Positions 6,969 through 37,225 of a stretch of DNA of 64,000 nt are shown here, piece after piece. A model generated the notes under the pieces. That model had not been told where the DNA came from. It searched no databases and was given only the letters and a program-made list of their open reading frames with translations. The stretch is from Eubacteriales bacterium (GTDB lineage: Bacteria; Bacillota; Clostridia; Oscillospirales; CAG-272). How positions within the stretch are numbered: the stretch's first letter is position 1; every line of letters starts with the position of its first letter. A program made the position numbers and the translations under genes. The DNA is taken from positions 226,099 to 290,098 of the forward strand of contig JAZKYL010000113.1 in assembly GCA_045612105.1 (NCBI GenBank). Direction: 5' to 3'.

Positions 6969-6997
6969 TTGACAAATCGAAGTTTTTATGATATAAT
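6969..6997 (+). promoter_or_regulatory. Consensus sigma-A promoter upstream of mgsA
   Basis: TTGACA-17bp-TATAAT. Confidence 0.8.
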
Positions 6998-7128
6998 CGT
7001 AGTGTTAGGACTTAAATAAGTTATAGATTTATATTAAAACATTGCGATTTTTTTCACAAAGATTCTTTTCGCATTGGTTTTTTATTAGTATTTTGTCCAA
7101 CAGTTCAAAACAGGATGGAGGAGTTCAA

Positions 7129-9788: not shown

Positions 9789-9888
9789 ATTTGTTTACAA
9801 AATATACCTATAATTACACAAACAAACAGTGTATAATAACATGAATTTAATACAATATATCCAAATAATACAAATTCAGGAGTGTTTT

Positions 9889-12384
9889 ATGAAGAAATTT
9901 TTAGCAATCGTTTTAACAATTTGTATGATCGTGACTTCGACAGCGTTCGCCTTCCCATTCACAGCATTTGCGGAAGATGCTAATAGCACGATCACAGTTA
10001 CCGACGTCGATTCATTGAATCAAGCAATCAAAGACATCGCTAACGGTGGAACTATTACCGTTAACGGTGACATGATTATTCCCGAGTCAAACAGTGGTTT
10101 CACCTTCAGCTCCGGTGCGGGAAAAACATACACCATCACGGGCGGTTCATTTGACTTTTCCGCTCTGACTTCCAGTGACGGCGAAAGAGGCTTTGTTCAC
10201 ATCAAAGACAACGTAACATTTGAAAATACAAAGTTTATCTTTGACTCCGCCAAAAATGACTATATCTTCGCTAACGGATACGATCTGACTATTTCAGAGA
10301 CGGTTACTTTCGAGGGCGCAGCGGTGTACTTTTACGGCGGTGTTCTCAATGGAGGCTGCAAATCCGTCAACGTAACTCTTCTCAGCGGAAATTACAAAAC
10401 AGTTTACGCTGCCAGTAATTCCAAACAAACCGTTTCAGGTGACGTTAATATTCACATTGGCGGAAGCGCAACCGTCACGGATATACTTGGAAACAGCGGA
10501 GGCAGTATCGTTGAAGGTGACGTTAACGTTCTTGTAGACGGCAATGCTGTTGCAAGCGGCGTTTACGGAGGTGGTAACGGCGGCACTGTCAATGGAAACG
10601 CTTATGTTACGGTTGGTGGCAACGCTGACATTAAGCTGATCTACGGCGGAGGTAGTGCCGGTACCATAAAGGGCAACACCTACGTTACTGTTAAAGATAG
10701 CGCTAATCCTAATTCAACTCCTTCGGATAGTAGCCATAACGGTGGCAACTACAACATTTACGGCGGAGGAAAAGGCACTATTGAAGGAAGTACTAACGTG
10801 TACTTTATGGATAATGCCAAAGCAGGCTACGTAGTTGGCGGTATGGCTCCCGGTTCGAACGGATCTATCGCAAACGGTGCTAATGTTTATATTATGGGCG
10901 GCACCACATATAGCGTTTACGGCTGCGGTACAAGTATAGATCACGGAACCGGTGCTAATATTATTATGACAGGCGGAACCGCTTGGCAGGTGTTTGGCGG
11001 CTGTGAGTCGTCAAGCGTTACCGGTGACGTTACTATAAAGCTTCTCGGTGGTACGGTTAAGCGTCGTGTTTATGGCGGTTGTTATAACGAAACCTCCGGA
11101 CTTTCTTTTGGAACTTCTTACTCCGTAACAGGTAATATAACTTTGATAATTGACAGCAATGTAAACATCGATTTCTCTTCTACTGACAATGACAGAAGCA
11201 TTTACGCTCATAGCCGACACGACAGCCCTTCTTCGGCAGAGATCTCTGCCATCTTGTTTACAGATTCCAACGCTTATAACACTTATAACAGTAAATTAGG
11301 TGCTCAGGATACCGCAATGAGCCTTATAATGGGCAATACCAGTTCCGCAGACGCAACCCACTGCCATTCCTACGCAATAAACGACAATATAGTCACACAA
11401 ACTTGTACCTGCGGCAATTCTGCAGCTGCTACAATTACGGCAAGAAATACAACGTATACCGGGGAAGAGATCAATGCAAGCATTGAGTATTCTGAACAAT
11501 GGGAATATGATAAATTCGAAGTGGTTCATTCCAATAACGTAAATGCCGGCACCGCAACTGCTACGTTCAGCGTTTACAACAATCAAGTTCATTCTGTAAG
11601 CTACAGCATTTTTAAGAGAACGCAAAAGGCTCCATCTGTTACGACCGATAATAACACTATCAAGGGTCTTACCACTGCTATGGAATACAGTAATGATAAT
11701 GGTGCAACATATACAGCTGTTACCAACCCCGAAATGACCTTTGAAGCAGGCAAATATTACGTTCGCTACGCAGCAATCGGTGAAAACGTTGCGGCATCAC
11801 CCGTAACCAAGGTATTCTTCGGAAGCGGTATTTCCGCAAACAAGGTAAGCGCACTTAATGGAAAGACCGTTGAGGTCATAATCAATATGCCTGTTAACTC
11901 GGGTATAAGCACTCTTGATCTTGCTATATCTTATAATACTACTGCGCTTACTCTTGACAACGTAACCGTTGGAAGCGTTGTTGGAGCAACTTACGCCAAC
12001 GGAAAGCTTACTTGGAGCGGCGAGAATACAACAAAAACCGGAATTCTCGCAAAACTTACTTTCACTGTAAGCGAAACCGCAGCAATAGGCAGTTATGATA
12101 TAACACTTTCTCAAGAGGGCTTCAGCATCGAAAACGGAACAATCAACGTTGTTGAATACGTTACCGGTGATGTTGGCGGTGACGATGGAAAGATCACTAT
12201 TTCCGATATCGTAGACTTAAGAAATGCAATAGCCAATGCAGAAACCGGGACTCTTGCAAGCGGTGCTGACGCAAACGGTGACGGTGCAGTAGATGTCCGG
12301 GATCTTATAGTTATTCGTCAATACATAGCCAACTATGACTATGATGCAGGAGAATCATCTGTAGTTCTCGGCGGCGCACAGTAA
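9889..12384 (+). CDS. Secreted protein with Gly-rich YGGG repeats, cohesin-like and dockerin domains
   Basis: Signal peptide MKKFLAIVL...AFA; repeated V-YGGG...G-x-V-x-G-D/N-x-x-V/I; cohesin-like GKTVEVII...ISYNTTALTL...ILAKLTFTV; dockerin GDVGGDDGKITISD / DANGDGAVDVRDLIVIRQYI. Confidence 0.75.
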   Translation: MKKFLAIVLTICMIVTSTAFAFPFTAFAEDANSTITVTDVDSLNQAIKDIANGGTITVNGDMIIPESNSGFTFSSGAGKTYTITGGSFDFSALTSSDGERGFVHIKDNVTFENTKFIFDSAKNDYIFANGYDLTISETVTFEGAAVYFYGGVLNGGCKSVNVTLLSGNYKTVYAASNSKQTVSGDVNIHIGGSATVTDILGNSGGSIVEGDVNVLVDGNAVASGVYGGGNGGTVNGNAYVTVGGNADIKLIYGGGSAGTIKGNTYVTVKDSANPNSTPSDSSHNGGNYNIYGGGKGTIEGSTNVYFMDNAKAGYVVGGMAPGSNGSIANGANVYIMGGTTYSVYGCGTSIDHGTGANIIMTGGTAWQVFGGCESSSVTGDVTIKLLGGTVKRRVYGGCYNETSGLSFGTSYSVTGNITLIIDSNVNIDFSSTDNDRSIYAHSRHDSPSSAEISAILFTDSNAYNTYNSKLGAQDTAMSLIMGNTSSADATHCHSYAINDNIVTQTCTCGNSAAATITARNTTYTGEEINASIEYSEQWEYDKFEVVHSNNVNAGTATATFSVYNNQVHSVSYSIFKRTQKAPSVTTDNNTIKGLTTAMEYSNDNGATYTAVTNPEMTFEAGKYYVRYAAIGENVAASPVTKVFFGSGISANKVSALNGKTVEVIINMPVNSGISTLDLAISYNTTALTLDNVTVGSVVGATYANGKLTWSGENTTKTGILAKLTFTVSETAAIGSYDITLSQEGFSIENGTINVVEYVTGDVGGDDGKITISDIVDLRNAIANAETGTLASGADANGDGAVDVRDLIVIRQYIANYDYDAGESSVVLGGAQ

Positions 12385-23589: not shown

Positions 23590-26157
23590 ATGAATATTTT
23601 GCAGAATTCCAAATGGATCGAATGTAAAAAGAGCGCGAATTTCGCCATAACCGACCCGAAAAACCCGTGGGAGGGCATTGAATTCTCTCCCCGCCCGGGA
23701 AACAAGGAAACGCAGTTTCAGCCGATAGAGAACGCAGGCGGATTGCCAATGTTCCGCCGCGTATTTACAGCAAAAAATGTAGCGAATGCTAAAATTACAG
23801 CTACCGCCCTTGGCATTTACAATCTTTGGTGCAACGGTCGCCGTGTCGGTACGAAAAATGCCGACGGTGAAGTAATTTTTGACGAATTCAACCCAGGCGC
23901 AGGCGTGTATTCCAAGAGAGTTATGGCAACAGAATACGACATTTCGGAGTATTTAGTTAACGGTGAGAACGTGATCCTCGCCGTAGTGGCTCCAGGTTGG
24001 TGGAAAGGAACAATATTCTACGATACCTACGGACTTGGATTGGGTATGGCATTCTGCGCGGAGATCGATCTGGGCGGCGAGAAAATTATCAGCGACGATA
24101 GCTGGCAGACTATGTGGGGCGGACGCGTCAGAGCCGCAGATTTCTACCACGGTGAGCTTTATAACGCGAGCTTTGATTCCTATGAGGAAATGTCTCTTGC
24201 GTCTTACGATGCAAGCGAGTGGACAAGCCCCGAGGTCTGGTGCGATCAGGTTATCGAGACCTTCAACGTAGGACATATTCCGAAGCATAAAACCCACATA
24301 AACGATCTCGAGATCGTACCTTTCAGAGGTCCTGCCGTAAGGATCAGAAAGCATCTCTCAAAAAAGCCTCAAACAGTCACAATTTATAACGGCACTAAGG
24401 ATAACGGAAGCGATTTCGGAGAGATCAACGTAATTTCCATCACCGAGAACAAGGACGGATTCGTTCTTTGTAAGGGCGAGACCGCGGTTATCGACTTCGG
24501 ACAGAATCTGGTGGCTTTGCCTGATATAATCTTCAAGGCAGCAAAAGGAACGTATATTCAAATCCGCGTAGCAGAGATGCTCAACGATTCGGGACTTTTG
24601 TCACGCGGCAACGATAATCCCAAGGGCTCGGTTTATACCATAAATTACAGAGGCGCAAGATCAAAGGCATATTATGTCGCAAATGGAGACGAGAGTGGCG
24701 AGAACTACTGCTCTATGTTTACCTTCTTTGGCTTCCGCTATATCGAGATCAGCGCTACCGATGATATTTCGGTCAGCAATCTTACTGCTATGGTGGTCGG
24801 CTCCGATATAGAGGAGGTAGGAAGCATCGAGACCTCCAACAGGGACGTAAATCAGCTTATTTCCAATATTTTTTGGGGACAACGAGGAAATTACCTCAGT
24901 ATTCCTACTGACTGTCCTCAGAGAGATGAGAGACAGGGCTGGACAGGAGACACTCAGTTCTTCTGTCAGACCGCGGCTTATAATGCCAACGTGCTTGAAT
25001 TCTTCCGCAAGTGGATGACCGATGCCCGCGACTCTCAGCATGAAAATGGCGCTTATCAGGACGTTATCCCTACGGTTCGCCATTGGGGGTACGGCGGTGC
25101 GGCTTGGGCAGATGCCCCCGTTATCGTAGCCTACGTTATGTGGTGTATGTATGCCGACAAGGATCTGCTTCGCGAGAATATAGATTCCCTTGATAAATAT
25201 ATGGATTGGCTCGCTTCGAGAGGTATGCAGGGTCCTGCGCCTACCTACGGTGACTGGCTGGCATACGACCTTATCGACAGAAGCTATATCAGTAAGGCAT
25301 ATTACGCTCTTGACGCGCAGATAATGGGTATGCTCCACTATATGCTAGGGAACTACGATAAGTCCGAGGAATATAATGATCTGTATTTTGAGATAAGAGA
25401 AGATTTCCGTGACACCTATATGGAAGACGGGGACCTTCTGCCCGAATACAGAAAACAGACGGGATATCTGTTGGCACTCCACACCGATATGTTCGATTTT
25501 GACGAGATCGATGCGGCGGCAGACGCTCTTGAAGAGAAGATAATAGAGAACGGATATATGCTCTCCACAGGCTTTGTAGGCACTCCTATCCTCTGTACCA
25601 CGCTTTCTAAGGTTGGAAAATCAAATATCGCATACTCGCTCCTGCTTCAGACCAAGGACCCCTCCTGGCTTTACAGTGTTCATCAGGGTGCGACCACCGT
25701 TTGGGAAAGATGGAATTCCTACACTCACGAAAGAGGCTTTGGCGACGTGAATATGAACTCCTTTAATCACTATTCCTTCGGTGCTGTAATGGAATGGATG
25801 TATCGCTATATGGTAGGAATTCAGAGCTTAGGTTTTGCATTTGAGCAGGTCATGTTTACCCCCAAGCCCGATATGAGAGCCGATAGTGAGATCCCTGCAG
25901 GACAAGAGAGGATAACCTGGGCAAAGGGTTCTTATGAGAGCAGATACGGCACTATCACGTCGGAATGGAAACGCGAGGGCGACGGATTCGTATTTATTTG
26001 CGAGACACCCGTATCCTGCGAATTCCATCTGCCGATAATTGAGGGCAAAAATGCGGTTACCGTAAATGGAAAACAGATTGATGTCCACTCTCTTGAGATC
26101 ATCGACGGCTGCGCCGTTATTAAGCTGGAGCGCGGCAAATATACTGTGGAATATTGA
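23590..26157 (+). CDS. Alpha-L-rhamnosidase, GH78
   Basis: DFGQNLV, FTFFGFRY, PTDCPQRDERQGWTGD, ATTVWERWN, SFNHYSFG. Confidence 0.9.
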   Translation: MNILQNSKWIECKKSANFAITDPKNPWEGIEFSPRPGNKETQFQPIENAGGLPMFRRVFTAKNVANAKITATALGIYNLWCNGRRVGTKNADGEVIFDEFNPGAGVYSKRVMATEYDISEYLVNGENVILAVVAPGWWKGTIFYDTYGLGLGMAFCAEIDLGGEKIISDDSWQTMWGGRVRAADFYHGELYNASFDSYEEMSLASYDASEWTSPEVWCDQVIETFNVGHIPKHKTHINDLEIVPFRGPAVRIRKHLSKKPQTVTIYNGTKDNGSDFGEINVISITENKDGFVLCKGETAVIDFGQNLVALPDIIFKAAKGTYIQIRVAEMLNDSGLLSRGNDNPKGSVYTINYRGARSKAYYVANGDESGENYCSMFTFFGFRYIEISATDDISVSNLTAMVVGSDIEEVGSIETSNRDVNQLISNIFWGQRGNYLSIPTDCPQRDERQGWTGDTQFFCQTAAYNANVLEFFRKWMTDARDSQHENGAYQDVIPTVRHWGYGGAAWADAPVIVAYVMWCMYADKDLLRENIDSLDKYMDWLASRGMQGPAPTYGDWLAYDLIDRSYISKAYYALDAQIMGMLHYMLGNYDKSEEYNDLYFEIREDFRDTYMEDGDLLPEYRKQTGYLLALHTDMFDFDEIDAAADALEEKIIENGYMLSTGFVGTPILCTTLSKVGKSNIAYSLLLQTKDPSWLYSVHQGATTVWERWNSYTHERGFGDVNMNSFNHYSFGAVMEWMYRYMVGIQSLGFAFEQVMFTPKPDMRADSEIPAGQERITWAKGSYESRYGTITSEWKREGDGFVFICETPVSCEFHLPIIEGKNAVTVNGKQIDVHSLEIIDGCAVIKLERGKYTVEY

Positions 26158-26168
26158 AAGGATTAAAT

Positions 26169-27179
26169 ATGCAAACATATTCGTATAAATCCCCCGAAAT
26201 AAAGGTGTTCGGTATTCCTAATTTTGATGAAAACAAGCGTCTGCGCCGTCTCCCCGATGACGTTATGGAAAAGGTTCCGAGCCTTGCTTTTCTCGGGAAG
26301 CGTCCTCAAGGCGCGCGACTCGGATTCAAGACAACCGCCACCGAATTCACCTTGAAAATTGAGTTTGAAACCTTCAAGCCCGACATTGGAATGGCAATAT
26401 ACAGCTGTCAGTCGGCACTGGTTTATGCAGGCGACAGACAGAATCCGCGTTATCTTGGAATGTGCCGTCCCGCAAGCTACGAGACAAAAGCCTTTGAAGC
26501 GAAATTTCGCAAGGGAAATGACAGTCTTGAAGATATTCTCGTCTGGTTGCCAAGAAACGAGATCATCGCCGACGTAACCCTTGACTTTCCCGACGGCGCA
26601 GTTGTCTGCAACCCCACGCCCTATAAGTACGAAAAGCCCATCGTTTATTACGGCTCGTCCATAACCGAGGGCGGTTGCGCATACAACGTAAATTGCGGCT
26701 ACAATGCCATAATCTCACAGCACCTCGATACCGATTATATCAATCTCGGCTTTTCGGGGAACGCAAAGGGCGAGCTTGCGGTTGCGGATTTCATAAACAC
26801 CCTTGACATGAGCATTTTCGTCTACGATTACGACCACAATGCGCCCACGGTGGAGCATCTTGCCGCTACTCACGAGCCTTTCTTCAAGCGCATCCGCGAG
26901 AAGCACCCCGATCTGCCCATAGTTATGATGACAAGACCTGCCATTATCTACGGAGAGGATGAAAAAAAGCGCCGCGAGATAGTAATGACTACTTATCGAA
27001 GTGCCCTTGATGCAGGCGACCAAAACGTATACTTTATCGACGGCGAGCAGTTCTTCGGTGAGCATGACAGACACCTTTGCACAGCTGACGGAGTACATCC
27101 CAACGATCTTGGCTTTTACAGAATGGCAGCGTGCGTTGAGCCTGTTATAATGTCGATTTTGGAGAACGGAAAAGCATAA
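26169..27179 (+). CDS. SGNH/GDSL hydrolase (putative carbohydrate esterase)
   Basis: YYGSSITEG, NLGFSGNAKGE, DYDHNA, DGVHPNDLG. Confidence 0.85.
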   Translation: MQTYSYKSPEIKVFGIPNFDENKRLRRLPDDVMEKVPSLAFLGKRPQGARLGFKTTATEFTLKIEFETFKPDIGMAIYSCQSALVYAGDRQNPRYLGMCRPASYETKAFEAKFRKGNDSLEDILVWLPRNEIIADVTLDFPDGAVVCNPTPYKYEKPIVYYGSSITEGGCAYNVNCGYNAIISQHLDTDYINLGFSGNAKGELAVADFINTLDMSIFVYDYDHNAPTVEHLAATHEPFFKRIREKHPDLPIVMMTRPAIIYGEDEKKRREIVMTTYRSALDAGDQNVYFIDGEQFFGEHDRHLCTADGVHPNDLGFYRMAACVEPVIMSILENGKA

Positions 27180-27197
27180 TATAAAATAATCGCAGTC

Positions 27198-27231
27198 AAA
27201 AAACTCCCGACCGAGGCGGTCGGGAGTTTTG
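27198..27231. terminator. Bidirectional terminator
   Basis: aaaaactcccgacc-gaggc-ggtcgggagtttt between convergent genes. Confidence 0.85.
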
Positions 27232-27239
27232 CATTATAT

Positions 27240-27893
27240 TTAGGAAGCCTTTCTGTTAAGATTGCTTTCAAAAAAAGCTTCGCGGTTAATAACGGTTGTA
27301 GCGGGGATATTCAGTTCATCGATCGACGCACAATACGCGAAGGCAAGCTCATCGATAAATTCGAGGATTGGAGGAAGAATTACTTTACTGAGACTGTCAC
27401 AAGCGTAGAAGGTGCTACTTTCAATGACCAAAAGATTATCGGAAAGCGAGATCTCGGCAAGATTTCGACAGCCCTCGAAAGCCGCAGAGCCGAGTCTTGT
27501 AAGCGAATCGGGAAGAGCTACAGAGATGAGAGCAGGGCAATAACCAAAGGCTTTTTCTCCGATACGTTCAAGATTCTCACCAAAATCAATTTTTGCAAGT
27601 CTGTCGCATCCCATAAAAGCTCTGTCGCCGATTTCGGATGCGTTCGAAGTAATCTCAACTAGCTCTCGGCACCAAGCGAATGCCTGAGGCTCAATAAATT
27701 CCACTGATTTCGGAAGAACAACACTCTTTATCTGTGTAGAGCGAGCAAATGCCTTTTCGGCAACTCCAACAACAGGATAGCCCTGAACCGAAGAGGGAAC
27801 AATGATATGCTCGTCGAGGCAGTTACCAATACCGCGCAGAACAGCCACGCCGTTTTTCATAACCACGTATTCAAGTCCGTAAGATATTCGCAT
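27240..27893 (-). CDS. BspA/LRR_5-type leucine-rich repeat protein, no signal peptide
   Basis: Repeated LPxSLxxIxxxAFxxCxxL units; GAAAGGAG RBS. Confidence 0.85.
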   Translation of the reverse strand: MRISYGLEYVVMKNGVAVLRGIGNCLDEHIIVPSSVQGYPVVGVAEKAFARSTQIKSVVLPKSVEFIEPQAFAWCRELVEITSNASEIGDRAFMGCDRLAKIDFGENLERIGEKAFGYCPALISVALPDSLTRLGSAAFEGCRNLAEISLSDNLLVIESSTFYACDSLSKVILPPILEFIDELAFAYCASIDELNIPATTVINREAFFESNLNRKAS

Positions 27894-27945
27894 CGGTGTG
27901 ACTCCTTTCTGCCGACAAGTACTGTGTCGTACTAATTATATGCCT

Positions 27946-27974
27946 ATTTTACACCAAAAATACCGTTTTGTCAA
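27946..27974 (-). promoter_or_regulatory. sigma-A promoter for LRR gene
   Basis: TTGACA-17bp-TAAAAT on minus strand. Confidence 0.7.
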
Positions 27975-28031
27975 CCCCATTATTGCAATTTAACAACTTT
28001 GGAGTGTTTTTTCGTATATTTGTGACAAAAC

Positions 28032-28260
28032 TTAGCCCAGGCTTACAATGCGCTTTACGTCAAGTGCCAGGGCCAAGGACGTTCGCCTTGCGGTTGCAAA
28101 AACGAGCGGCGATTACAGCCCTCAAGGGCAAGCGAGGCTGTTTTCGGCAATGTTTGACATGGGCGAGAACGGCACGCGGGGGCTTATGAAGCTGATTGGC
28201 GAGGCACGAGGTGTTGATCTCGGAAATTTAGCCCAGGCTTACAATGCTCTTTACCAAGTG
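28032..28260 (+). repeat. Imperfect direct repeat at left edge of phage-like fragment (28032-28066 / 28228-28260)
   Basis: ttagcccaggcttacaatgc (20 bp exact) + g/t + ctttac + (gt) + caagtg, copies 196 bp apart. Confidence 0.85.
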
Positions 28261-31200
28261 GGAGCGCGAGGAGAGCATATTTTGAAGGCGAAAAATCCTT
28301 ATATTTCGATGCTTACGCCCGAGCAGGTTGGTTTGGCGTATACTTACGGTCAGATGGACGGGCTACTGGAGAGGGGGAAAAATAAAAATTCGTCTGAGGT
28401 AGTAGAAGAAGCGAAGCCCGAATTTTTGGATAGCGAGAAGGTCGAGAAAGCGCAAGCGGAGGTTGACGCGGCAAAGAGAACTGACGGCAAAAAGAAAAAA
28501 GGCACCGTTATTTACGACGGTGACAGAAGCAAGCTTTCTGATATGCAGAAAAAATCTCTTGACGTATTGGATAAGGTTGCCGAGGCTCTTGGCGTTACGT
28601 TCCGCATTTACGAGTCTGAGAGGGTAAATGGAAAATTCGTTTACGAGAAGCCCGACGGTGTAAAGACGAGCGCTAACGGTTGGTATGATACCAAGACCGG
28701 TGAGATCTGGCTTGATATTAATGCCGGACTTAACGGAGAAGGTACGCTGATCTTTACCGCGGCGCATGAGCTGACGCACTTTATAAAGCAATGGTCGCCT
28801 GCAAAATTCAAGATCTTTGCAGACTTCCTGATTGAGCAGTACGGAGAGCGTGGAATTTCGATAGACGAGTTGGTTCAGAGACGGATCGACAAGAAAAAGA
28901 AAAACGGTGAAGATATAGACCCGGATGTAGCTTACGAGGAAGTAATCGCCGATTCTTGCGAAACCTTCCTTCGTGACAGCAATGCCGCTGAGAAGATAGC
29001 AGAGCTTCATCAGAAGGATGCAAGTCTTGCACAGAAGATAAAGCGATTCCTCAGTGATATGCTCAAGAGACTGCGCGAGCTGATGAACGGAATGGATCCC
29101 GATTCGCTTGAGGGAAAGATGGTTGCTGAGATGACGGGAAGCCTGGAACAGTTGCACAAGCTTTGGACCGACGCGCTCGCCGATGCTGGGGAGGCGTATT
29201 CGGGGGCGGAAGGTGTAGTAAACTCTGAAGGCGGTGTTAAGGAACAGGCGAGAAACGCTAAAAACACAAACGCACAATCAAATAGAACCTTTTCATACAA
29301 TGAGCTTGTGTCAAAGGGGGATCTTTATGGCGTAGTTGTTGATAAAAATCAGCAATTACAAATGAATGGTGGTGTAGTAGATGCGAACTGGCTTGTAAAT
29401 GAGGTGAAAAAGGGTTGCCAAATTAAAAATACCAAAGGAGGACCGGTATATTACGCAGAAGCACCTGATATTGGTAGAAATGTTGAAATTATCAGAGACG
29501 GAATAACTCACGGATTTAACAGACCAAATGACAAAAGAGCAGGTAAATCCACTCCTAATGCCATTATAAATGCTAAAGCATCATTAAATATCATTGAGTT
29601 ACTTCGTCATTCTATAGAAGTCAACAGATCTCAACGAGGTGCCAATAAAGATGTGCCTTATACTCATGTATTGATGGGAGTTATGGAAATCGAGAATGCT
29701 GCAGGGCAAGCAGAATATTATGCGGTTCGTAGCATGGTTCAAGAGAGAACAAATCTCAATCCTCTATTGGTTGAAGTTAACATATTGGGCAAGTTATCAT
29801 CCGTAAATGCAAAAAAAATAGGTTCGCCCGCTGCTCAGGCGGGTAAAAAAACCACAGCCCCTGCAGGTGGCATAACCTATTTTACCTATAGTATAGCAGA
29901 TTTTCTTCAAGATGTCAAGGGGGAATTTGACGATACTTTTTCAAATGATGTTTATGCACATTTTAATATGCAACGCCATGCTAATGATTTTTCGGCTAAT
30001 TTGATGTATTCCGACCGTGATCCTGATGCGCTCACAAACCGTGAGATCTTAGCTAATCTTCTTGAGAGCGAAGATATGTCACCTTCGGAGAAGGGATTCT
30101 TGACGAAGTACAAGAACAAGATCTCTCAGATCGAGGCTAATGAGGCGGAGATCGCCTCCATGGAGACCGAGCTGAAGGAGCTTCGGAAGGCAGGAAAGGG
30201 AGATTCTTCGAGGGCTATCACGCTTGAGGGGAAGATCGAGAACCGCCGCAAGGAGATCGCACGGGATGAGAATATGATCCTCAATCTTGAGTCTACCAAG
30301 CCTATTAAGGAGCTGTTGAAGCGTGAGAAGGATGCCGCTTACGCTGAGGGTATGCTTGCCGGGCAGATGGGGCAGGGAAGACGGGATGCCGCCAAGCTGC
30401 GCCGAGCCGAGGAGAAGCTTGCGGAACAGAAGCGCAAGGACGGTGAGACTCTTGCCGAGTACAGAAAGCGAGTTGTCGAGAGAGAGGCTGAGATCAAGCA
30501 GAAGAACCGTGAGAAGCTGGCAGAGCAGAGAGAGAAGGCACGAGAGAATCTTGATGCGCAGGCTAAGAGGTATCAGGCATCGAGAAAGGCTGCGACCGAG
30601 GGCAGACATAAGACTGCTATGCGCCACAAGATTGCAGACGTTGTCTCTGAGCTTGACAGACTTCTGCGCAAGGGAACTAAGGAGCGCAACGTTAAGATCG
30701 GGCTTCAGGATGCGGTTGCCTCTGCGCTTGAGCTTTTCGATATGAATTCGGAAAAGGTAGAAAGATACAACAAGGCTATTGCCGATCTGGATGCCCGTAT
30801 AGCTGCCGCCACCGATCCCGTAGAGATCGAGGCTCTTACTGCCCTTCGTGAGAAGAAGGTGAGAAACAGCGAGAGGCTTGCGGACAAGCTGCAGGTAATG
30901 AAGAAGGCTTACGAGGATATTCACAACGGTCGTGACGGTGAGAATTATCCTTCGTATTACAAGGCAGAGTGCGAGGCTATTGAGAACCGTATTGCCGAGG
31001 TCATGGAGAAGGTGGGAGACACGCCCATCGGGGATATGTCCCTCGAACAGCTTGAGGCGGTCTATAATATGTACCGCATGGTATTGACCACGGTGCAGAA
31101 TGCCAACAAGATATTCAAGGAGGGCAAGCTGGCTGATCTTACCGATGATGCTGCTGCTATGACCGCGGAGCTTCAGAGGATCAAGAAGCTTGCAGAGGAG

Positions 31201-32955
31201 AGGCTGAAGGCGGGGGATGACATTCGCAGCTTTGTATGGAACGAGCTGACACCTTATTACGCGTTCAACCGAATAGGCTGTGAGACGCTCATGAGCTACT
31301 ACCACGAGCTGATCCGCGGCCAGGACATTTATGCGCGAGATATTGAGGAAGCGCAGCAGTTTGCTGAGCAGACTCGAGAGAAGCACGGATACAACAAGTG
31401 GAAGCTTGATAAGGTACACAGCTTCAAGGACAAGGACGGAAGAGATTTCCGCTTGACGTTGCGGCACATGATGTCGATCTACGCTTACTCCAAGCGAGAG
31501 CAGGCATTTGACCACATGGAGAAGGGAGGCTTCTTCTTCAACAACAAGGAGACCTTCAGGAAGAAAGGTGGAGTGCTTAAGTTCATAGCCTCCAACGAGT
31601 CGGGATACAAGGTGGATGCTCGTATATTCGCTCAGATCAAGGGAGCATTGACCGCCGAGCAGATCGCTTACGTTGACGAGATGCAGGCTTACCTCACCCA
31701 GATGGGAGAGAAGGGCAACGAGGTCACGAGAGTGATGTGGGGAATTGATATCTTCAAGGAGGCTGTATATTTCCCGCTGAAATCGAAGGAGGATTTCATA
31801 TACCAGGCTAACACTCCTGCGGAGACGTCGTCTCTTAAAAACGACGGCATGACCAAGGAGACAAAGCCTCACGCCAGCAATCCCATCGTGCTTGAGTCCT
31901 TCGACGAGGTCTGGGCGAACCACGTGGAGAAGATGAGCAAGTATCACGGGTTTGTTATTCCGATCGATAACTTGAATAAGTTGGTCAACTATGGAACGTG
32001 GATGAGTGGGGAGAGTCAAACGGAACGGGTATTTTCTTCTAATAATGAAATAAGAACTGAGATTGGCGAAGAGGATAGGACTGCCGGCAAGATAGCTGCT
32101 GATTTTATCGATGACGTTTCAAAAATGCAAGATAAAGTCAAGCGCTCCAAACGAAAGAAAAAAATCGGACTTCCTTCCTCTGCACATATCGAGAAAATTG
32201 AAGCCCTAATAAAAACTATAAACGAAGATTTTTCTGCTGATGGATACGAAGTTTGGATTGACGGAACAGCAGTAGATCATCTTATGAGAAGGCATGGAGA
32301 AAATGGTGTTGCCGATCACTCTATGGCTTCAAGAGAAAGCAGAGAGCTTATACCGTGGGTGGTAAACAATCCGGACTCGGGCGAGTTAATTCGCAATACA
32401 GACGGAACATTAGATTTATCCAATAGGTATTTTAATGCAGATGGATCGAAAGCACCGCAAATACGAATGGAAAAGCAAATAGACGGTGATACGGTATACG
32501 TTTCCGAATGTGTGCCTGATAGTATTAATAAAAGAATTTATATTACCAGTGCATACATAAAAAAAGGTAGTACCGATCAACTGTTGAACATAGCTCCTAC
32601 AAGTGGAACTCCGCAACCTACGTCCGAAACGTCTTTTGATGGCAGTACTACCAATAGTAGTATATCACATCCTGGCGAAAATGTCAATAGGAATTTTTCG
32701 ACAAATTCAGAAATGGGCTCTCATTCGATCTCCACCATGCTCGAGGCGAGGTTTGGTCCGGGTGTCAACGAGTATCTCAACACCTTTATAAAAGACCTGA
32801 ACGGCGCAAAAGCGCAGAATGGCGGTGTTATGGGCGGAGTGTTCAACCTCCTCTCCAAGTTCAAAAAGACCTCTGTGGCGGCATCGCTTTCGGTCGTTGT
32901 TCAGCAGCCTACGGCGATCATCCGCGCGCTCAGCGAGATTGACGCGAGGTATTAA
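28048..32955 (+). CDS. Fragment of a phage/mobile-element large polyvalent protein (zincin-like HExxH domain, coiled coil, two nuclease-like variable domains); probably truncated at both ends
   Basis: NGWYD...IWLDINAG...AHELTH...EEVIAD metallopeptidase-like motif; module boundary motifs VKEQAR and MYSDRD; DHLMRRHG...VVNNPD...ITSAYIKK RNase-like domain; no RBS at ATG 28048; ends abruptly at ...SEIDARY. Confidence 0.75.
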   Translation: MRFTSSARAKDVRLAVAKTSGDYSPQGQARLFSAMFDMGENGTRGLMKLIGEARGVDLGNLAQAYNALYQVGARGEHILKAKNPYISMLTPEQVGLAYTYGQMDGLLERGKNKNSSEVVEEAKPEFLDSEKVEKAQAEVDAAKRTDGKKKKGTVIYDGDRSKLSDMQKKSLDVLDKVAEALGVTFRIYESERVNGKFVYEKPDGVKTSANGWYDTKTGEIWLDINAGLNGEGTLIFTAAHELTHFIKQWSPAKFKIFADFLIEQYGERGISIDELVQRRIDKKKKNGEDIDPDVAYEEVIADSCETFLRDSNAAEKIAELHQKDASLAQKIKRFLSDMLKRLRELMNGMDPDSLEGKMVAEMTGSLEQLHKLWTDALADAGEAYSGAEGVVNSEGGVKEQARNAKNTNAQSNRTFSYNELVSKGDLYGVVVDKNQQLQMNGGVVDANWLVNEVKKGCQIKNTKGGPVYYAEAPDIGRNVEIIRDGITHGFNRPNDKRAGKSTPNAIINAKASLNIIELLRHSIEVNRSQRGANKDVPYTHVLMGVMEIENAAGQAEYYAVRSMVQERTNLNPLLVEVNILGKLSSVNAKKIGSPAAQAGKKTTAPAGGITYFTYSIADFLQDVKGEFDDTFSNDVYAHFNMQRHANDFSANLMYSDRDPDALTNREILANLLESEDMSPSEKGFLTKYKNKISQIEANEAEIASMETELKELRKAGKGDSSRAITLEGKIENRRKEIARDENMILNLESTKPIKELLKREKDAAYAEGMLAGQMGQGRRDAAKLRRAEEKLAEQKRKDGETLAEYRKRVVEREAEIKQKNREKLAEQREKARENLDAQAKRYQASRKAATEGRHKTAMRHKIADVVSELDRLLRKGTKERNVKIGLQDAVASALELFDMNSEKVERYNKAIADLDARIAAATDPVEIEALTALREKKVRNSERLADKLQVMKKAYEDIHNGRDGENYPSYYKAECEAIENRIAEVMEKVGDTPIGDMSLEQLEAVYNMYRMVLTTVQNANKIFKEGKLADLTDDAAAMTAELQRIKKLAEERLKAGDDIRSFVWNELTPYYAFNRIGCETLMSYYHELIRGQDIYARDIEEAQQFAEQTREKHGYNKWKLDKVHSFKDKDGRDFRLTLRHMMSIYAYSKREQAFDHMEKGGFFFNNKETFRKKGGVLKFIASNESGYKVDARIFAQIKGALTAEQIAYVDEMQAYLTQMGEKGNEVTRVMWGIDIFKEAVYFPLKSKEDFIYQANTPAETSSLKNDGMTKETKPHASNPIVLESFDEVWANHVEKMSKYHGFVIPIDNLNKLVNYGTWMSGESQTERVFSSNNEIRTEIGEEDRTAGKIAADFIDDVSKMQDKVKRSKRKKKIGLPSSAHIEKIEALIKTINEDFSADGYEVWIDGTAVDHLMRRHGENGVADHSMASRESRELIPWVVNNPDSGELIRNTDGTLDLSNRYFNADGSKAPQIRMEKQIDGDTVYVSECVPDSINKRIYITSAYIKKGSTDQLLNIAPTSGTPQPTSETSFDGSTTNSSISHPGENVNRNFSTNSEMGSHSISTMLEARFGPGVNEYLNTFIKDLNGAKAQNGGVMGGVFNLLSKFKKTSVAASLSVVVQQPTAIIRALSEIDARY
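29811..29883 (-). ncRNA. Predicted ~73-nt antisense small RNA 1 embedded after first variable domain
   Basis: Starts at 7th nt after -10 box; 10-bp terminal stem AAAAUAGGUU/AACCUAUUUU, two internal hairpins, U8 end; prediction only. Confidence 0.6.
29890..29918 (-). promoter_or_regulatory. Intragenic antisense sigma-A promoter 1
   Basis: TTGACA-tcttgaagaaaatctgc(17)-TATACT with extended -10 TG. Confidence 0.75.
32559..32652 (-). ncRNA. Predicted ~94-nt antisense small RNA 2 embedded after RNase-like domain
   Basis: Starts at 7th nt after -10 box; 10-bp terminal stem GGUAGUACUG/CGGUACUACC, AUCAA/UUGAU, two internal arms, U7 end; prediction only. Confidence 0.65.
32659..32687 (-). promoter_or_regulatory. 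Intragenic antisense sigma-A promoter 2
   Basis: TTGACA-ttttcgccaggatgtga(17)-TATACT with extended -10 TG. Confidence 0.75.
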
Positions 32956-32979
32956 CCGCTTTATGACCTCGAATATTAA

Positions 32980-33018
32980 CTCAAAACGAAAGCAAATTGT
33001 ATCGTTTTGAGCCTTTTT
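32980..33018 (+). terminator. Putative terminator after polyvalent-protein fragment
   Basis: ctcaaaacga-12nt-tcgttttgag-ccttttt. Confidence 0.55.
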
Positions 33019-33115
33019 AGTTTATAGCGAGAAAATATATTGCTCATGTTAACCATTTCTTCATTTTTTTTTGATATAATAATTTAAATATTATGCAAAA
33101 TTTGGAGAAATAATT

Positions 33116-33559
33116 ATGAAAACCAAAGTAGAGATCAAAAAACTTGACGAAAGAGCAATAATCCCCACCTACGGTACCGAGTTTTCGGCAGGTGCTGATA
33201 TTTACGCGCTCCTTGACGAGCCCGTAACTATCGCTCCCGGCGAAACCAAGCTTATCCACACCGGACTTGCCATGGCTATTCCCGAAGGGCTTGTAGGGCT
33301 TAATTTTGCCCGTAGCGGCATGGCTACCAAGCGCGGCTTGGCTCCTGCAAATAAAGTGGGCGTTATCGACAGCGACTATCGCGGTGAGGTTATGGTGGCG
33401 CTTCACAATCACGGAAAAGAGCCTCAGACCATCGAGCATGGCGACCGAGTTGCGCAAATGGTATTTGTACCTTATTATGCCGCTGAATTTGAGATTTGTG
33501 ACGAGTTGAGTGAGACTCTTCGCGGCGAGGGCGGCTTCGGTTCTACAGGAACCAAGTAA
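33116..33559 (+). CDS. dut: dUTP diphosphatase
   Basis: SAGADI, ARSGMA, GVIDSDYRGE, RGEGGFGSTG. Confidence 0.96.
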   Translation: MKTKVEIKKLDERAIIPTYGTEFSAGADIYALLDEPVTIAPGETKLIHTGLAMAIPEGLVGLNFARSGMATKRGLAPANKVGVIDSDYRGEVMVALHNHGKEPQTIEHGDRVAQMVFVPYYAAEFEICDELSETLRGEGGFGSTGTK

Positions 33560-33573
33560 TTTTCCCAAAAATA

Positions 33574-33602
33574 TTGACTTTTCAGCTTATAAGGTTTATA
33601 AT
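33574..33602 (+). promoter_or_regulatory. sigma-A promoter for CobW operon
   Basis: TTGACT-17bp-TATAAT. Confidence 0.7.
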
Positions 33603-33644
33603 TTAAGTGTTATTATATCAATTATCTTTAGAAAGGCAAATAAA

Positions 33645-34937
33645 ATGACAAAAATCGACATATTTTCGGGATTTCTCGGTGCGGGAAAGACTACCCTTAT
33701 CAAAAAGCTTATAGAAGAAGCATATCACGGTGAAAAGCTGGTCCTTATCGAAAACGAATTCGGTGAGATTGGTATCGACGGCGGTTTCCTTGCCGAGGCA
33801 GGCATCAAGATCAACGAAATGAACTCGGGTTGTATCTGTTGCTCTCTTGTCGGTGACTTTGCTGTAGCGCTTAAGAAGGTTATCGATGAATACGCTCCCG
33901 ACCGCATCCTTATCGAGCCCTCAGGTGTTGGTAAACTCTCCGACGTTATCAAGGCGGTTGAGAACGCAGACACAGAGGGAGCTATCCTCAACGGCTTTAC
34001 CACCATCGTTGACGCAAACAAGTGCAAAATGCATATGAAGAACTTCGGTGAGTTCTTCAACGACCAGGTTGAAAATGCGGGATGTATCGTACTCAGCCAC
34101 ACGGGCAATATTTCCGAGCAGAAGATCGCGGATTGCGTAGTGCTTCTAAAGGAGCATAATGCTACCGCTGTAATCGTTTCCACACCTTGGGATCAGCTCA
34201 CGGGCGATCAGCTTCTTGAGGCTATGGAACGCAAGTCTACCCTTGAGGCAGAGATGAGCGAACTTGCCGAGGAGGCTCACGAGCATCATCACCACCATGG
34301 CGAGTGCTGCCACCACGATCACGATGAGGAACACGAGCATCATCACCACCACGGCGAGTGCTGCCACCTCGATCACGATGAGGAACACGAGCATCATCAC
34401 CACCACGGTGAGTGCTGTCACCACGATCACGATGAGGAACACGAGCATCATCACCACCACGGCGAGTGCTGCCACCACGATCACGATGAGGAGCATCACC
34501 ATCACCATCACCATCACGAATACGACGAGCACGGTAATTGCTCCTGCGGTCATCACCACGATGAGCATGAGCACCACCACGAATATGATGAGCACGGTAA
34601 TTGCTCCTGCGGTCACCATCATCACGATCATCACCACCATCACCATCATGCCGACGAGGTCTTCGTAAGCTACGGCGCTGAGACCACCAAGAAGTTCAAC
34701 GCTGACGCGCTTAAGGCGGCTCTTGAAAGCTTCACCGATGCTGAAAAGTACGGTATGATCCTTCGCGCGAAGGGTATCGTTGCCGCAGATGACGGCAGAT
34801 GGATCCACTTCGACTATATCCCCGGTGAGCCCGACGTACGTTTCGGCGGTGCAGGCGTTATCGGTCGACTCTGCGTTATCGGCTCTAAGCTTAACAAGGA
34901 TGCCGTATCCAAGGCTATCGGAGTAGAGCTGGCATAA
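33645..34937 (+). CDS. CobW/COG0523 G3E GTPase metallochaperone with long His/Cys-rich insert
   Basis: SGFLGAGKTT, ENEFGEIGID, GCICC, IEPSGVG, LRAKG C-domain; GAAAGG RBS before ATG 33645. Confidence 0.92.
   Translation: MTKIDIFSGFLGAGKTTLIKKLIEEAYHGEKLVLIENEFGEIGIDGGFLAEAGIKINEMNSGCICCSLVGDFAVALKKVIDEYAPDRILIEPSGVGKLSDVIKAVENADTEGAILNGFTTIVDANKCKMHMKNFGEFFNDQVENAGCIVLSHTGNISEQKIADCVVLLKEHNATAVIVSTPWDQLTGDQLLEAMERKSTLEAEMSELAEEAHEHHHHHGECCHHDHDEEHEHHHHHGECCHLDHDEEHEHHHHHGECCHHDHDEEHEHHHHHGECCHHDHDEEHHHHHHHHEYDEHGNCSCGHHHDEHEHHHEYDEHGNCSCGHHHHDHHHHHHHADEVFVSYGAETTKKFNADALKAALESFTDAEKYGMILRAKGIVAADDGRWIHFDYIPGEPDVRFGGAGVIGRLCVIGSKLNKDAVSKAIGVELA
34278..34649 (+). repeat. In-frame tandem repeats: 4 x 54 bp (HEHHHHHGECCHHDHDEE) then 2 x HHEYDEHGNCSCGHHH
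   Basis: Direct reading of DNA and protein. Confidence 0.95.
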
Positions 34938-34965
34938 TTTATTGTTATACAGAAAGGTTTTTGAA

Positions 34966-35916
34966 ATGGCACAACCTACAATCCCCGTATATCTTTTTAC
35001 CGGCTTTCTTGAAGGCGGTAAGACACACATAATTCAGGAGTCTATGGCAGACGAGCGCTTCAACACAGGAGAAAAGACCCTTATTATCCTCTGTGAAGAG
35101 GGAATCGAGGAGCTTGACGTATCCGAATTCAGCGGAAAGAACGTCTATCTTGCAACTCTTGACAGTGAAGCCGACGTTACCGCGGAGAAGCTTGAAGCCT
35201 GCCGCGACGGACACAAAATCGACCGTGTTATTATCGAGTATAACGGTATGTGGCAGTTGGCGAATCTTTATAACAATCTGCCCCGTGATTGGTTCATATT
35301 CCAGAATATGATGTTTGCGGACGCTAACACTTTCTTCACCTACAACCAGAATATGAGAAGTCTTATGGTAGACAAACTTATGTCCTGCGAGATGATCGTT
35401 CTGAACCGCACTCCCGATAATATTGACAAAGACGAGGTTCATAAGATCGTCCGCGGCATCTCCCGAAGAGCGACTATTACCTACGATTATCCCGACGGTC
35501 ACGTTGAATATGACGAGATCGAGGATCCCCTGCCTTTTGATATCGATGCAGACGTTATCGTAATTGAAGACGACGACTACGCGCTCTGGTACAGAGATCT
35601 CAGCGAGGAGATGGAGAAATACGACGGCAAAACCGTCAAGTTCAAGGGTGTAGTTGCAAGAGATATGAAGCTTGGCAAAGATGCTATCGTTATCGGCAGA
35701 CACGTTATGACCTGCTGTGTTGAGGATATCGCATACAGCGGTCTTGTCTGCAAGTTCAAGTCAGCGGTTGCGTATAAGAACTACGATTGGATCAACGTTC
35801 AGGGTAAGATCAAGATTGAGAAAAATAAGCTTTACGGCAGACCCGGTCCGGTTATCTATGCCGACAGCAGCGCATATACTGATAAACCAGAAAAGGAAGT
35901 AGCAACATTCTATTAA
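34966..35916 (+). CDS. CobW-like P-loop domain fused to TIGR03943/DUF1980-like C-terminal domain
   Basis: YLFTGFLEGGKT, IIEYNGMW, GRHVMTCCVEDI. Confidence 0.75.
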   Translation: MAQPTIPVYLFTGFLEGGKTHIIQESMADERFNTGEKTLIILCEEGIEELDVSEFSGKNVYLATLDSEADVTAEKLEACRDGHKIDRVIIEYNGMWQLANLYNNLPRDWFIFQNMMFADANTFFTYNQNMRSLMVDKLMSCEMIVLNRTPDNIDKDEVHKIVRGISRRATITYDYPDGHVEYDEIEDPLPFDIDADVIVIEDDDYALWYRDLSEEMEKYDGKTVKFKGVVARDMKLGKDAIVIGRHVMTCCVEDIAYSGLVCKFKSAVAYKNYDWINVQGKIKIEKNKLYGRPGPVIYADSSAYTDKPEKEVATFY

Positions 35917-35941
35917 AACTTTTATCGAAAGGAGCAGAGAT

Positions 35942-37225
35942 ATGGAAAATACCAATGCTGTTCAAAATCCAATAGACTCCACCGTACTAACTAAAAATAT
36001 AGATAAGCCATTTACTCCCTCGATCGTCAAAGAAGAAAGGAATATGGGGGTTGAGCTTTTCCGTGTAGTCTCAATGATGATGGTTGTTTTGCTCCACGTC
36101 CTGGGACACGGTGGGGTCTACTCATATGCCGGCTCTCTTACCGATAACTATAAGGTTGCTTGGTTTTTAGAGACTCTCGCATACTGCTCCGTAAATTGCT
36201 ACGCTCTTATATCCGGTTTTGCTAACGTAAAATCAGGCTTCAAGTTCAGAAGAATAATATATCTTTGGCTTGAGGTAGTAACACTTAACGTCGGTCTTAC
36301 CGTAGTAATGCACTTTTTTGTACCAACGGCAACCGTCACTGAAGATTATTGGCTCCGCGCCTTTTTCCCACTTACAAGACGTGCCTTCTGGTACTTCTGC
36401 GCTTATTTCTTTATGTTTCCTTTGATTCCCATACTAAATAAGGGAATACTTTCCTTAAAAAAATATCAGCATATAATTATATGTTTTATGCTTATGGCAC
36501 CGGCCGTATTCCGTATCATAATGAAAAAAGATAACTACGTGCTTGGAAGCGGTTATTCCGCTCTTTGGCTCGTCTGTCTCTATATCATAGGAGCTTATTT
36601 CAGAATATACGGAGCACCAAAATGGGCAAAATGGTTCGTAACTCTCCCTGTTTTCTTCGGCACAACGTTCATAGCATGGTATTATAAAATACACATCGAA
36701 ATGATGCGAAAAGAAGGTATGGAATTCGCAGGAGAGGTCGTCACAAAAGATTCCGAGCTTTATACAAACAGAGGTATCCTTATCAGCTATATCTCACCTT
36801 GCATGGTAATTATGGCGGTTTGCTTACTGTTGTTCTTTATGCAAATAAAAATAAAGCACAAGGTTCCAAAGGTAATAATATCTAATCTTGGAAAAGCTAC
36901 CTTCGGTGTATTTATTCTTCACGTTGGCGCGGCATTCTGGTATTGGGACAGCTTTTGGAATCAGTTCCGCGCTTTCGGTAAAGCCCCCAATACCATCTGG
37001 GGAATGCTGTGGCGAGTTGCGGTCGCAATGCTGTTTATTTACCTTTCCGCATCAATAATTAGCCTTGCTCGAATATATTTATTTAAGCTTTTGAGAATTC
37101 ATAAAGGTGTCGACTTTTTAGCAGATCTCCCCACACGCATTTCAGAAAAAATAAGGATCCGAAAAGAAGCGAAAGCAGCGGAGACATTGGAAGCATCTGA
37201 AGAATCAACACAACCTACTGAATAG
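35942..37225 (+). CDS. Acyltransferase-3 family membrane O-acyltransferase
   Basis: ERNMGVELFRVVSMMMVVLLH, VNCYALISG, WYFCAY, FGVFILH; multiple TM helices. Confidence 0.85.
   Translation: MENTNAVQNPIDSTVLTKNIDKPFTPSIVKEERNMGVELFRVVSMMMVVLLHVLGHGGVYSYAGSLTDNYKVAWFLETLAYCSVNCYALISGFANVKSGFKFRRIIYLWLEVVTLNVGLTVVMHFFVPTATVTEDYWLRAFFPLTRRAFWYFCAYFFMFPLIPILNKGILSLKKYQHIIICFMLMAPAVFRIIMKKDNYVLGSGYSALWLVCLYIIGAYFRIYGAPKWAKWFVTLPVFFGTTFIAWYYKIHIEMMRKEGMEFAGEVVTKDSELYTNRGILISYISPCMVIMAVCLLLFFMQIKIKHKVPKVIISNLGKATFGVFILHVGAAFWYWDSFWNQFRAFGKAPNTIWGMLWRVAVAMLFIYLSASIISLARIYLFKLLRIHKGVDFLADLPTRISEKIRIRKEAKAAETLEASEESTQPTE

Follow-up and report, generated by a model that had tools for sequence, protein, structure and literature searches.

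In this study, a 64-kb stretch of DNA from an Eubacteriales bacterium (contig JAZKYL010000113.1; below, the window) was analysed for a polyvalent-protein open reading frame (ORF) of 1635 amino acids (aa) and for two short units on its opposite strand. Each unit consists of a promoter, a closed hairpin and a run of T, and lies in the linker that ends one of two variable domain cassettes of the ORF. That each variable cassette has an antisense promoter-hairpin-U-run unit of its own had been proposed in an earlier reading of this DNA (the original prediction), and conservation in relatives, described below, backs the proposal. The features of the locus are as follows.

28048..32955, plus strand: polyvalent-protein ORF fragment, 1635 aa, from the ORF list and its translation; 3'-truncated relative to a homologue.
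29230..29810, plus strand: coding region of variable domain 1 (LPD3-like; function unknown), with relatives at 25-30% identity in 6 other genomes.
29811..29883, minus strand: predicted small RNA 1, 73 nucleotides (nt), with closing stem AAAAUAGGUU/AACCUAUUUU, inner hairpins and a U8 tail.
29890..29918, minus strand: promoter 1, TTGACA-17-TGC-TATACT; sense-frame reading S-I-A-D-F-L-Q-D-V-K.
32083..32736, plus strand: cassette 2, inserted in frame (aa 1346-1563) and absent from the backbone of the homologue P0002.
32203..32577, plus strand: coding region of PBECR3 (BECR-fold RNase-like), Pfam PF18812.
32559..32652, minus strand: predicted small RNA 2, 94 nt, with a 10-base-pair (bp) closing stem, an ACGU-UUCGG-ACGU hairpin, a second hairpin and a U7 tail.
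32659..32687, minus strand: promoter 2, TTGACA-17-TGA-TATACT; sense-frame reading S-I-S-H-P-G-E-N-V-N.

Both promoters were read exactly where the original prediction had placed them. On the minus strand, promoter 1 has TTGACA at 29918-29913, a 17-nt spacer and TGC-TATACT at 29895-29890, and promoter 2 has TTGACA at 32687-32682, 17 nt and TGA-TATACT at 32664-32659. TTGACA-N17-TATACT with at most one mismatch was found four times on the two strands of the 64 kb, against 0.31 expected (four matches were reached in 0 of 100 shuffles); the only exact occurrences are promoters 1 and 2, which were also the top two sites (11/12 plus TG) in a promoter scan of 24000-37000. The 10-bp closing stems begin at 29883 and 32652, the seventh base past each -10 box, and the T-runs are located at 29818-29811 (8 T) and 32565-32559 (7 T), likewise as foreseen. 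Predicted RNA 1 is the antisense of the linker 'KKIGSPAAQAGKKTTAPAGGITYF' and predicted RNA 2 that of the linker 'KKGSTDQLLNIAPTSGTPQPTSETSFDGSTTN'. The minus-strand folds have energies of -34.2 kcal/mol for RNA 1 (z -4.67; equalled by 0/200 shuffles) and -30.0 kcal/mol for RNA 2 (z -3.23; equalled by 1/200), whereas the plus-strand counterparts fold more weakly, at -28.5 kcal/mol (z -3.94) and -20.3 kcal/mol (z -1.63). A composite scan for promoter, closed hairpin and T-run over both strands of the whole window returned four units, the other two being weak (9/12 promoter matches). The two cassettes had been described as otherwise unrelated in sequence, which has to be corrected for the promoters: both share the sense-frame reading S-I-x6-V-[KN]-x-x-F. 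When domain 1 was compared with domain 2 by hhalign, this promoter-coded motif alone was aligned, with a probability of 0.7%.

Promoters of this type are also present elsewhere in the window. TTGACA-17-TAAAAT was found directly upstream of a minus-strand leucine-rich-repeat gene (27974-27946, minus strand), and a near-consensus TTGACA-17-TAxAAT was observed upstream of the ORF at 7042 (6969-6997, plus strand) and of an AraC-family gene (41856-41828, minus strand). Judging from these positions, the host evidently employs such promoters for ordinary genes.

The 1635-aa ORF contains an HExxH motif, the LPD3-like cassette, a coiled-coil backbone and the PBECR3 cassette. The HExxH motif was read from the translation, with no Pfam confirmation; the sole Pfam match of the ORF is PBECR3 (PF18812, aa 1386-1510, E 3.1e-9, 37.2 bits with a cut-off of 30). 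Residues 785-1342 match phrog_22978, a 3513-position PHROG of unknown function (E 1.5e-121). The same backbone is present in an IMG/VR homologue, P0002 (locus L005, at least 2261 aa), in which the point between GESQ and AISTMLEARF corresponds to the insertion of 218 extra residues (aa 1346-1563) in the window protein. Since the P0002 backbone is without these residues, the PBECR3 block with its linker and promoter is an in-frame inserted cassette, composed of a leader, the PBECR3 domain, the RNA-coding linker and a promoter-coding stretch. The G+C content of both cassettes is 0.42-0.43, against 0.51-0.53 for the intervening backbone.

Relatives of the PBECR3-like domain and its RNA (family 2) are the more numerous. 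A protein database search with aa 1345-1570 gave 26 matches, 19 of which cover at least 87% at 47-96% identity. Across different proteins the domain and linker start at positions ranging from aa 9 to aa 1295. Because these positions in giant proteins differ so widely, the PBECR3-like domain and its unit act as an in-frame cassette, and the claim that the cassette can be shuffled in frame holds for this family. At the DNA level, family 2 comprised 21 loci: the window, four from species genomes and 16 from 17 of 401 genomes of the order. In 20 of the 21, an antisense TTGNNN-17-TANNN[T/A] (spacer of 18 in one locus) stands ahead of a closed hairpin with a T-run; locus L040 was outside the promoter judgement, the contig edge being ~36 nt upstream of the RNA. 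Among the -35 boxes, TTGACA occurs 11 times and TTGACT five times. The distance from promoter to hairpin is 6-11 nt (~27 nt in L041, due to an extra hairpin), and the hairpin RNAs are 75-95 nt long. The hexamers are kept despite wholly different peptides: TTGACA/TATACT of the window is read as SSISHPGENVN, TTGACA/TACAAT of L025 as TDIVATPRPSVK and TTGATT/TATAAT of L023 as NTIISDTAEKIN. Across domains that are only 30-40% identical, family 2 retains CGUUUCGGACGU and GGUUGCGGGG. No antisense ORF is conserved downstream of the promoter across the 21 loci, and the only stand-alone short PBECR3-like relatives were four fragments on contigs under 1.4 kb.

Two further observations were made on this family. 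In L030, a second promoter (TTGACA-17-TACAAT) lies ~170 nt downstream of the main unit in the sense direction and is followed by a hairpin, AGAGGTAGAG..CTCTACCTCT, without a run of four T; this may be a further, weaker unit. At the protein level, the non-PBECR3 cassettes of P0023-P0028, which occupy the same backbone site, end in '..SI[SP]xxxENVNRNFSTNSEMGSHS' ahead of 'ISTMLEARF', the same promoter-coded peptide, and the promoter-proximal segment may be common to different cassettes.

Covariation was examined in family 2. With nine sequences, RNAalifold predicted 28 pairs, 14 of them with compensatory changes. Some of these changes are synonymous: Ser AGT/AGC pairs with Thr/Ala on the other arm, and Asp GAT/GAC with Asp/Gly. 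The alternative peptides TSET and TPEA (never mixed in the sequences seen) correspond to U-A or C-G in the conserved hairpin ACGU-UUCGG-ACGU. A covariance model, R1, gave 17 sites in the window and 22 loci, all antisense and at the expected place; in the window it matched 32557-32656 (RNA 2) with 94.7 bits. It did not match RNA 1 of the window or loci L033, L037, L038 and L039, the latter four of which still fold as closed hairpins. Identical RNA rows were counted once in the pairing, promoter and strand tallies. For 16 distinct sequences, 91.8% of the cells are paired against 69.3 +/- 1.4% after shuffling (observed value reached in 0/500) and 33-55% in slid controls, in an alignment (A4) that is fitted to the structure, favours the model and contains sequences that are related, not independent. 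Changes on both sides were found in 21 of the 28 pairs of this set. G-U cells number 47 and A-C cells four, and the paired share drops to 81.8% when the sense strand is read in place of the antisense strand (91.8%). Because of this G-U excess and the loss of pairing on the sense strand, the structure is that of an antisense RNA and not of the mRNA or a DNA cruciform, in agreement with the preference for a minus-strand RNA that had been drawn from the G-U pairs of the window. For family 2, there is thus a covariation-supported structure on one strand.

Selection at the nucleotide level was also detected with codons, in an alignment of eight sequences from which L034, represented by its C-terminal part only, was left out. 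At third codon positions the sequences are less alike in the domain body (identity 0.369) than in the RNA-coding linker (0.668), while amino-acid identity is similar in the two (0.447 and 0.466). The same codon is used for the same residue in 538/1250 cases (43%) in the domain body, 308/396 (78%) in the RNA region and 63/86 (73%) in the promoter region. Since synonymous codons are conserved in the linker, unlike in the domain body, the conserved linker peptide (KKGSxGQLLNM..SPQPTPEASFD..) is best read as a shadow of RNA constraints. The original prediction had named two checks on homologues, namely whether synonymous codons destroy the promoter and stems, and whether the elements are conserved with covariation at the DNA level. 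Both came out in its favour: synonymous sites are conserved in the RNA-coding linker and not in the domain body, and the promoter (20/21 loci) is conserved together with compensatory changes in family-2 pairs (21/28).

Relatives of domain 1 and its RNA (family 1) were found in 7 of 401 genomes, at 25-30% identity. The TGn-TATACT is invariant in all seven loci, and a closing stem and T-run are present in every one. Six loci have TTGACA as the -35 box and the seventh has TTGCAA; five have a 17-nt spacer and two a 16-nt one. Although divergence is saturated, S-I is coded by AGT-ATA in 7/7 loci. Within the hairpin, conservation is confined to the 9-bp closing stem, five of whose nine pairs show compensatory changes; the interior is variable, and covariation support is limited to that stem. 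In locus L047 (218-396, plus strand), an in-frame tandem duplication (108 nt, 36 aa) of the whole family-1 unit was observed inside the polyvalent ORF; because this duplication is in frame, the RNA gene can be amplified without a frame break. No Pfam family was assigned to domain 1, and a weak LPD3 match was found in one of the seven members. An Atlas pointer to LPD3 (score 0.92) serves as a lead only, and the AlphaFold model of the domain, with a mean predicted local distance difference test (pLDDT) score of 49.9, was unusable. Of the two domains described earlier as nuclease-like, this designation is therefore backed for domain 2 (PBECR3, E 3.1e-9) and unsupported for domain 1, which has no Pfam family and is LPD3-like.

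RNAs were also collected by their core motif alone. A 21-letter motif of the RNA core was searched in public viral and metagenome contigs (4 and 65 loci), and filtering of the hits with R1 left 22 RNAs, spread over 19 of these 69 loci. Of the 22, 21 have a promoter upstream that scores at least 9.5 and has a 17-nt spacer. Among 18 distinct RNAs, 16 reached a score of at least 10.5; of 20,000 windows drawn at random from these loci, 0.89% did. A conserved promoter at a fixed upstream distance is thus a feature of families 1 and 2 and of the core-motif RNAs. Most of these RNAs lie opposite long ORFs, of up to 1829 aa, and a PBECR3-like domain was recognisable directly upstream (in the sense direction) in 11/22; some of the rest are broken copies. 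In L109 (5251-5359), L081, L062 (4125) and L086 (3379), the RNA is present without a PBECR3 domain, and homology to L075 begins exactly at the RNA 3' end. The RNA of L109 overlaps the start of a 268-aa ORF, and a ~400-nt non-coding stretch with an internal repeat was observed upstream.

Further units are present in relatives, though not universally. The composite scan of 27 related loci (92 kb; L026 and L043, which are the window itself, were left out) detected 33 units antisense to the polyvalent ORF and two in the sense orientation. Fourteen of the 33 are additional flank units, four of them at a broken sense frame. Several units stand behind a third recurring domain type ('..GKK[FY]LYD[IV]xNIK'), and the promoters of the additional units are always read in the sense frame as [ST]-I-x..-V-[NK].

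Other searches gave few or no results. R1 had 0 matches at E <= 0.001 in 150 other genomes drawn across the phylum, and no further copies of either element were found in the own genome. Rfam gave 0 matches at E <= 1 for 27500-33500, and in four related loci only an unrelated pemK RNA was above the gathering threshold; a pemK RNA motif (RF02913, 61.8 bits), unrelated to the unit, was located in L109 at 1589-1646 on the minus strand. No match was obtained by megablast of the ORF against phage and plasmid collections. Protein-pattern scans of viral contigs for the two domains gave one weak match and none, and a search with alignment A1 gave 0 in viral and 0 in metagenome contigs. Tandem repeats are absent from both RNA loci, the sole array in 27900-33100 being at 28991-29040. 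A 21-nt match in the own genome (E 0.018) lies in the same sense over the start of a response-regulator gene and its ribosome-binding site, and was judged to be chance.

The genomic setting of the window copy differs from that of its relatives. P0002 continues ~600 aa beyond the end of the window ORF ('SEIDARY'), and for this reason the window gene is taken as a solitary, 3'-truncated fragment. The 30 ORFs scanned around it are chromosomal Firmicute genes, none of a phage or transfer family; they include thrS, pyrH, frr, uppS, cdsA, dxr, rseP, ispG, polC, a rhamnosidase, a dUTPase, cobW-like genes and sugar enzymes. Relatives of 1163-2856 aa bear ART-PolyVal, LPD3 and MuF_C domains. As is typical of polyvalent proteins, the ORF encodes a single large polypeptide with several effector or LPD domains that are unrelated to one another, the LPD3-like part of this assignment being weak. 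Location in a phage or conjugative element applies to the relatives and not to the window copy: in the complete genome G103, a 2080-aa relative lies between virion/tail-fibre-like genes and an endolysin, and further relatives are on IMG/VR contigs. The phage setting that had been assumed for this gene is accordingly that of the full-length relatives, in prophages and viral contigs, and not that of the window copy, a lone fragment amid chromosomal genes.

Because the promoter is conserved, the stems covary and synonymous sites are conserved in relatives, the units are under selection, and those in the window are very probably genuine antisense transcription units. The main role of the predicted RNAs is tentatively suggested to be cis-antisense repression, the likeliest and most economical of the roles considered, which we nevertheless rate somewhat short of probable. 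According to this proposal, a near-consensus housekeeping promoter (sigma-70/SigA-type) with an extended -10 would drive an RNA from the opposite strand of the linker. Transcription would begin at the base of the closing stem or immediately beside it, and with the stem followed by the U-run the whole 73-94 nt RNA would be its own terminator. The RNAs would be abundant and stable cis-antisense regulators, with paired ends that would protect them from exonucleases. By pairing with the giant mRNA where the coding region of the cassette ends on its 3' side, they would cause cleavage or a block of translation. In the lysogen, leaky expression of a potentially harmful effector cassette would be silenced in this way until strong late transcription outruns the RNA. 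Each such cassette would carry along a safety catch resembling a type I antitoxin.

Several points weigh against this proposal. The transcription start, RNA length and RNA abundance are predictions from sequence, and large multi-branch hairpins are atypical as intrinsic terminators. The pairing figures come from the structure-fitted alignment of related sequences mentioned above. No unit was found by the composite scan in the backbone homologue at L005, and under strict criteria a single unit was present in each of two full-length genes, of 2080 and 2788 aa; with units behind some cassettes only, nothing here calls for a silencer acting on the giant gene in general. Pure cis-antisense action has no need of a conserved RNA interior, so the interior conservation of family 2 also counts against it, and hints at a partner in trans.

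Two findings speak for a partner other than the RNA's own mRNA: conservation of the family-2 interior, and the occurrence of units with certain cassette families only. The linker RNAs might then be dedicated partners of the effector domain next to them, as inhibitors, immunity factors or cofactors, which seems unlikely to us. In its type-III-like form, regarded as equally unlikely, an inhibitor or immunity RNA would bind and neutralise the PBECR3 or LPD3-like domain in the producer or lysogen, or after injection. The RNA family does track the domain family, in that R1 matches only linkers behind PBECR3-like domains and not RNA 1; this linkage, however, is trivial, as the RNA overlaps the domain's own tail. 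Conservation of the family-2 interior goes beyond the needs of antisense pairing, and the units stand behind particular cassette families and not behind every domain. In the main-text account of PMC5512222, PBECR domains are predicted RNases or RNA binders. On the other side, the family-1 interior is not conserved and domain 1 is no known nuclease, the RNA occurs without the domain in four cases (L109, L081, L062, L086) with homology starting from the RNA 3' end, and the defining features of type III systems are missing. A trans-acting phage small RNA, a regulator or decoy made in lysogeny or early and directed at host or competitor RNAs or proteins, with linkers that merely tolerate the coding constraint, is a distinctly unlikely explanation. 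The near-consensus host-type promoters, the conserved unpaired or loop sequence of family 2 and the presence of relatives in prophages and viral contigs would suit it. But no target was found: as a pairing site for the two RNAs, the translation-start region of the polyvalent gene came only 31st and 36th among 92, and the sole short own-genome match is in the same sense and looks like chance. The antisense bias (33:2) and the linker position suit a cis role better.

It is also conceivable, at a lower probability again, that transcription itself matters, with a head-on promoter and an immediate terminator acting as a roadblock or by interference to throttle sense transcription. The promoter, the start spacing and the terminator-like end are indeed the most conserved features, the family-1 interior is free to vary and some genes have several units; yet the family-2 interior covaries and is conserved, for which interference has no need, and most full-length genes examined have a single unit. 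Integron attC hairpins stand at the 3' ends of cassettes, and a comparable DNA-level recombination signal for in-frame cassette exchange was considered as well. An imperfect palindrome closes each cassette, family 1 conserves the stem ends only, the homology breakpoints of L109, L081, L062 and L086 against L075 coincide with the RNA 3' edge, and the unit of L047 is duplicated in frame and in tandem. We nevertheless regard such a signal as very improbable: it leaves the conserved promoter with its fixed spacing unexplained, the excess of G-U over A-C (47:4) favours RNA, a recombinase was found in none of the 30 neighbouring window ORFs scanned, and the 3' boundary of cassette 2 in the window lies ~50 nt past the promoter and not at the hairpin. 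Hardly credible is an origin by chance or as a by-product of a linker peptide conserved at the protein level, for example as a protease site. Peptide conservation is indeed seen for the sense-frame motifs SPQPTPEASFD, SIxxxxxxVN and TISIADLL, but synonymous sites are conserved in the linker only, the hexamers persist under a changed peptide, some compensatory changes are synonymous, and S-I is AGT-ATA in all seven family-1 loci.

Antisense RNA genes within the genes of mobile elements are already known. IS10 RNA-OUT, lambda OOP and paQ are cis-antisense RNAs embedded in mobile-element genes, and the units described here resemble them in having a strong promoter on the opposite strand, inside or at the end of a coding region, a short stable RNA (here predicted), paired ends in a long imperfect hairpin and perfect complementarity to the mRNA of the element itself. 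There is no sequence or Rfam relation to these RNAs. The units differ further in that the whole stretch from promoter to terminator lies within an in-frame linker in the middle of a giant ORF, and in that at least two unrelated RNA families move with protein-domain cassettes. The type I antitoxin RNAs of Firmicutes, RatA/txpA and SR4/bsrG, have a constitutive promoter and act by duplex formation and RNase III. The likeness here lies in a predicted antisense RNA that, by sequence, matches the sense mRNA over its full length and covers the 3' part of the coding region of a presumed harmful polypeptide. The toxins of type I systems are small, hydrophobic and usually membrane-active peptides with a gene of their own, unlike the candidate here, an RNase-like or unassigned domain in a protein of 1600-2800 aa (1635 aa in the window). 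In the type III systems ToxIN, CptIN and TenpIN, a structured RNA is found beside an RNase-like protein module, and a structured RNA adjoining such a module on a mobile element is what the units have in common with them. In the features that were compared, the type-III analogy put forward in the original prediction does not hold beyond this: neither RNA locus has tandem direct repeats, the RNA is not upstream on the same strand with a terminator in between but is antisense, downstream and overlapping the 3' tail of the domain, and the protein is BECR-fold PBECR3 or LPD3-like and not of the ToxN type, with no Rfam match for the RNA.

The main text of a survey of polyvalent proteins describes them, in phages and conjugative elements, as having multiple effector domains, among them PBECR3 and LPD3, and mosaic domain rearrangements (Iyer et al., 2017, PMC5512222). 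The host gene of the units is of this class, and its relatives lie in prophage late regions. The words 'promoter', 'antisense' and 'linker' have 0 occurrences in that main text, which gives no description of DNA- or RNA-level linker elements. Among the titles and abstract openings returned by literature searches, there was no account of complete RNA genes in in-frame linkers of polyvalent proteins that are shuffled with the domains.

If the units are transcribed, the same DNA would be selected in two ways, with one strand encoding an unstructured linker and the opposite strand a complete gene made up of promoter, RNA and terminator, and giant phage effectors would have an RNA layer of control or immunity that has been overlooked by protein-centred work. 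RNA genes of this kind in linkers would escape RNA searches confined to intergenic DNA. Linker peptides such as SPQPTPEASFD and SIxxxxxxVN may be shadows of RNA and promoter constraints and not protein features. Should the RNAs instead be partners of their domains, each domain and the antisense RNA gene belonging to it would form a toxin-immunity cassette, self-contained and shuffleable in frame, which would protect the producing or lysogenic cell, or shut off an injected effector once the incoming DNA is transcribed. Synonymous promoter-killing mutations offer a direct test of how phages prevent their packaged RNase-type effectors from harming the cell that produces them.

Two longer antisense ORFs were also observed opposite the polyvalent gene, at 30079-32019 (minus strand, 646 aa) and 28363-29277 (minus strand, 304 aa). 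The polyvalent gene has a strong purine and G-over-C skew (GC skew about 0.2), and these ORFs are probably companions of the strand skew and not genes. Elsewhere in the window, an 851-aa protein with cohesin and dockerin domains is encoded at 9829-12384 (plus strand). This suggests a cellulosome-type fibre degrader, which agrees with the ruminant-gut origin of related metagenome-assembled genomes.

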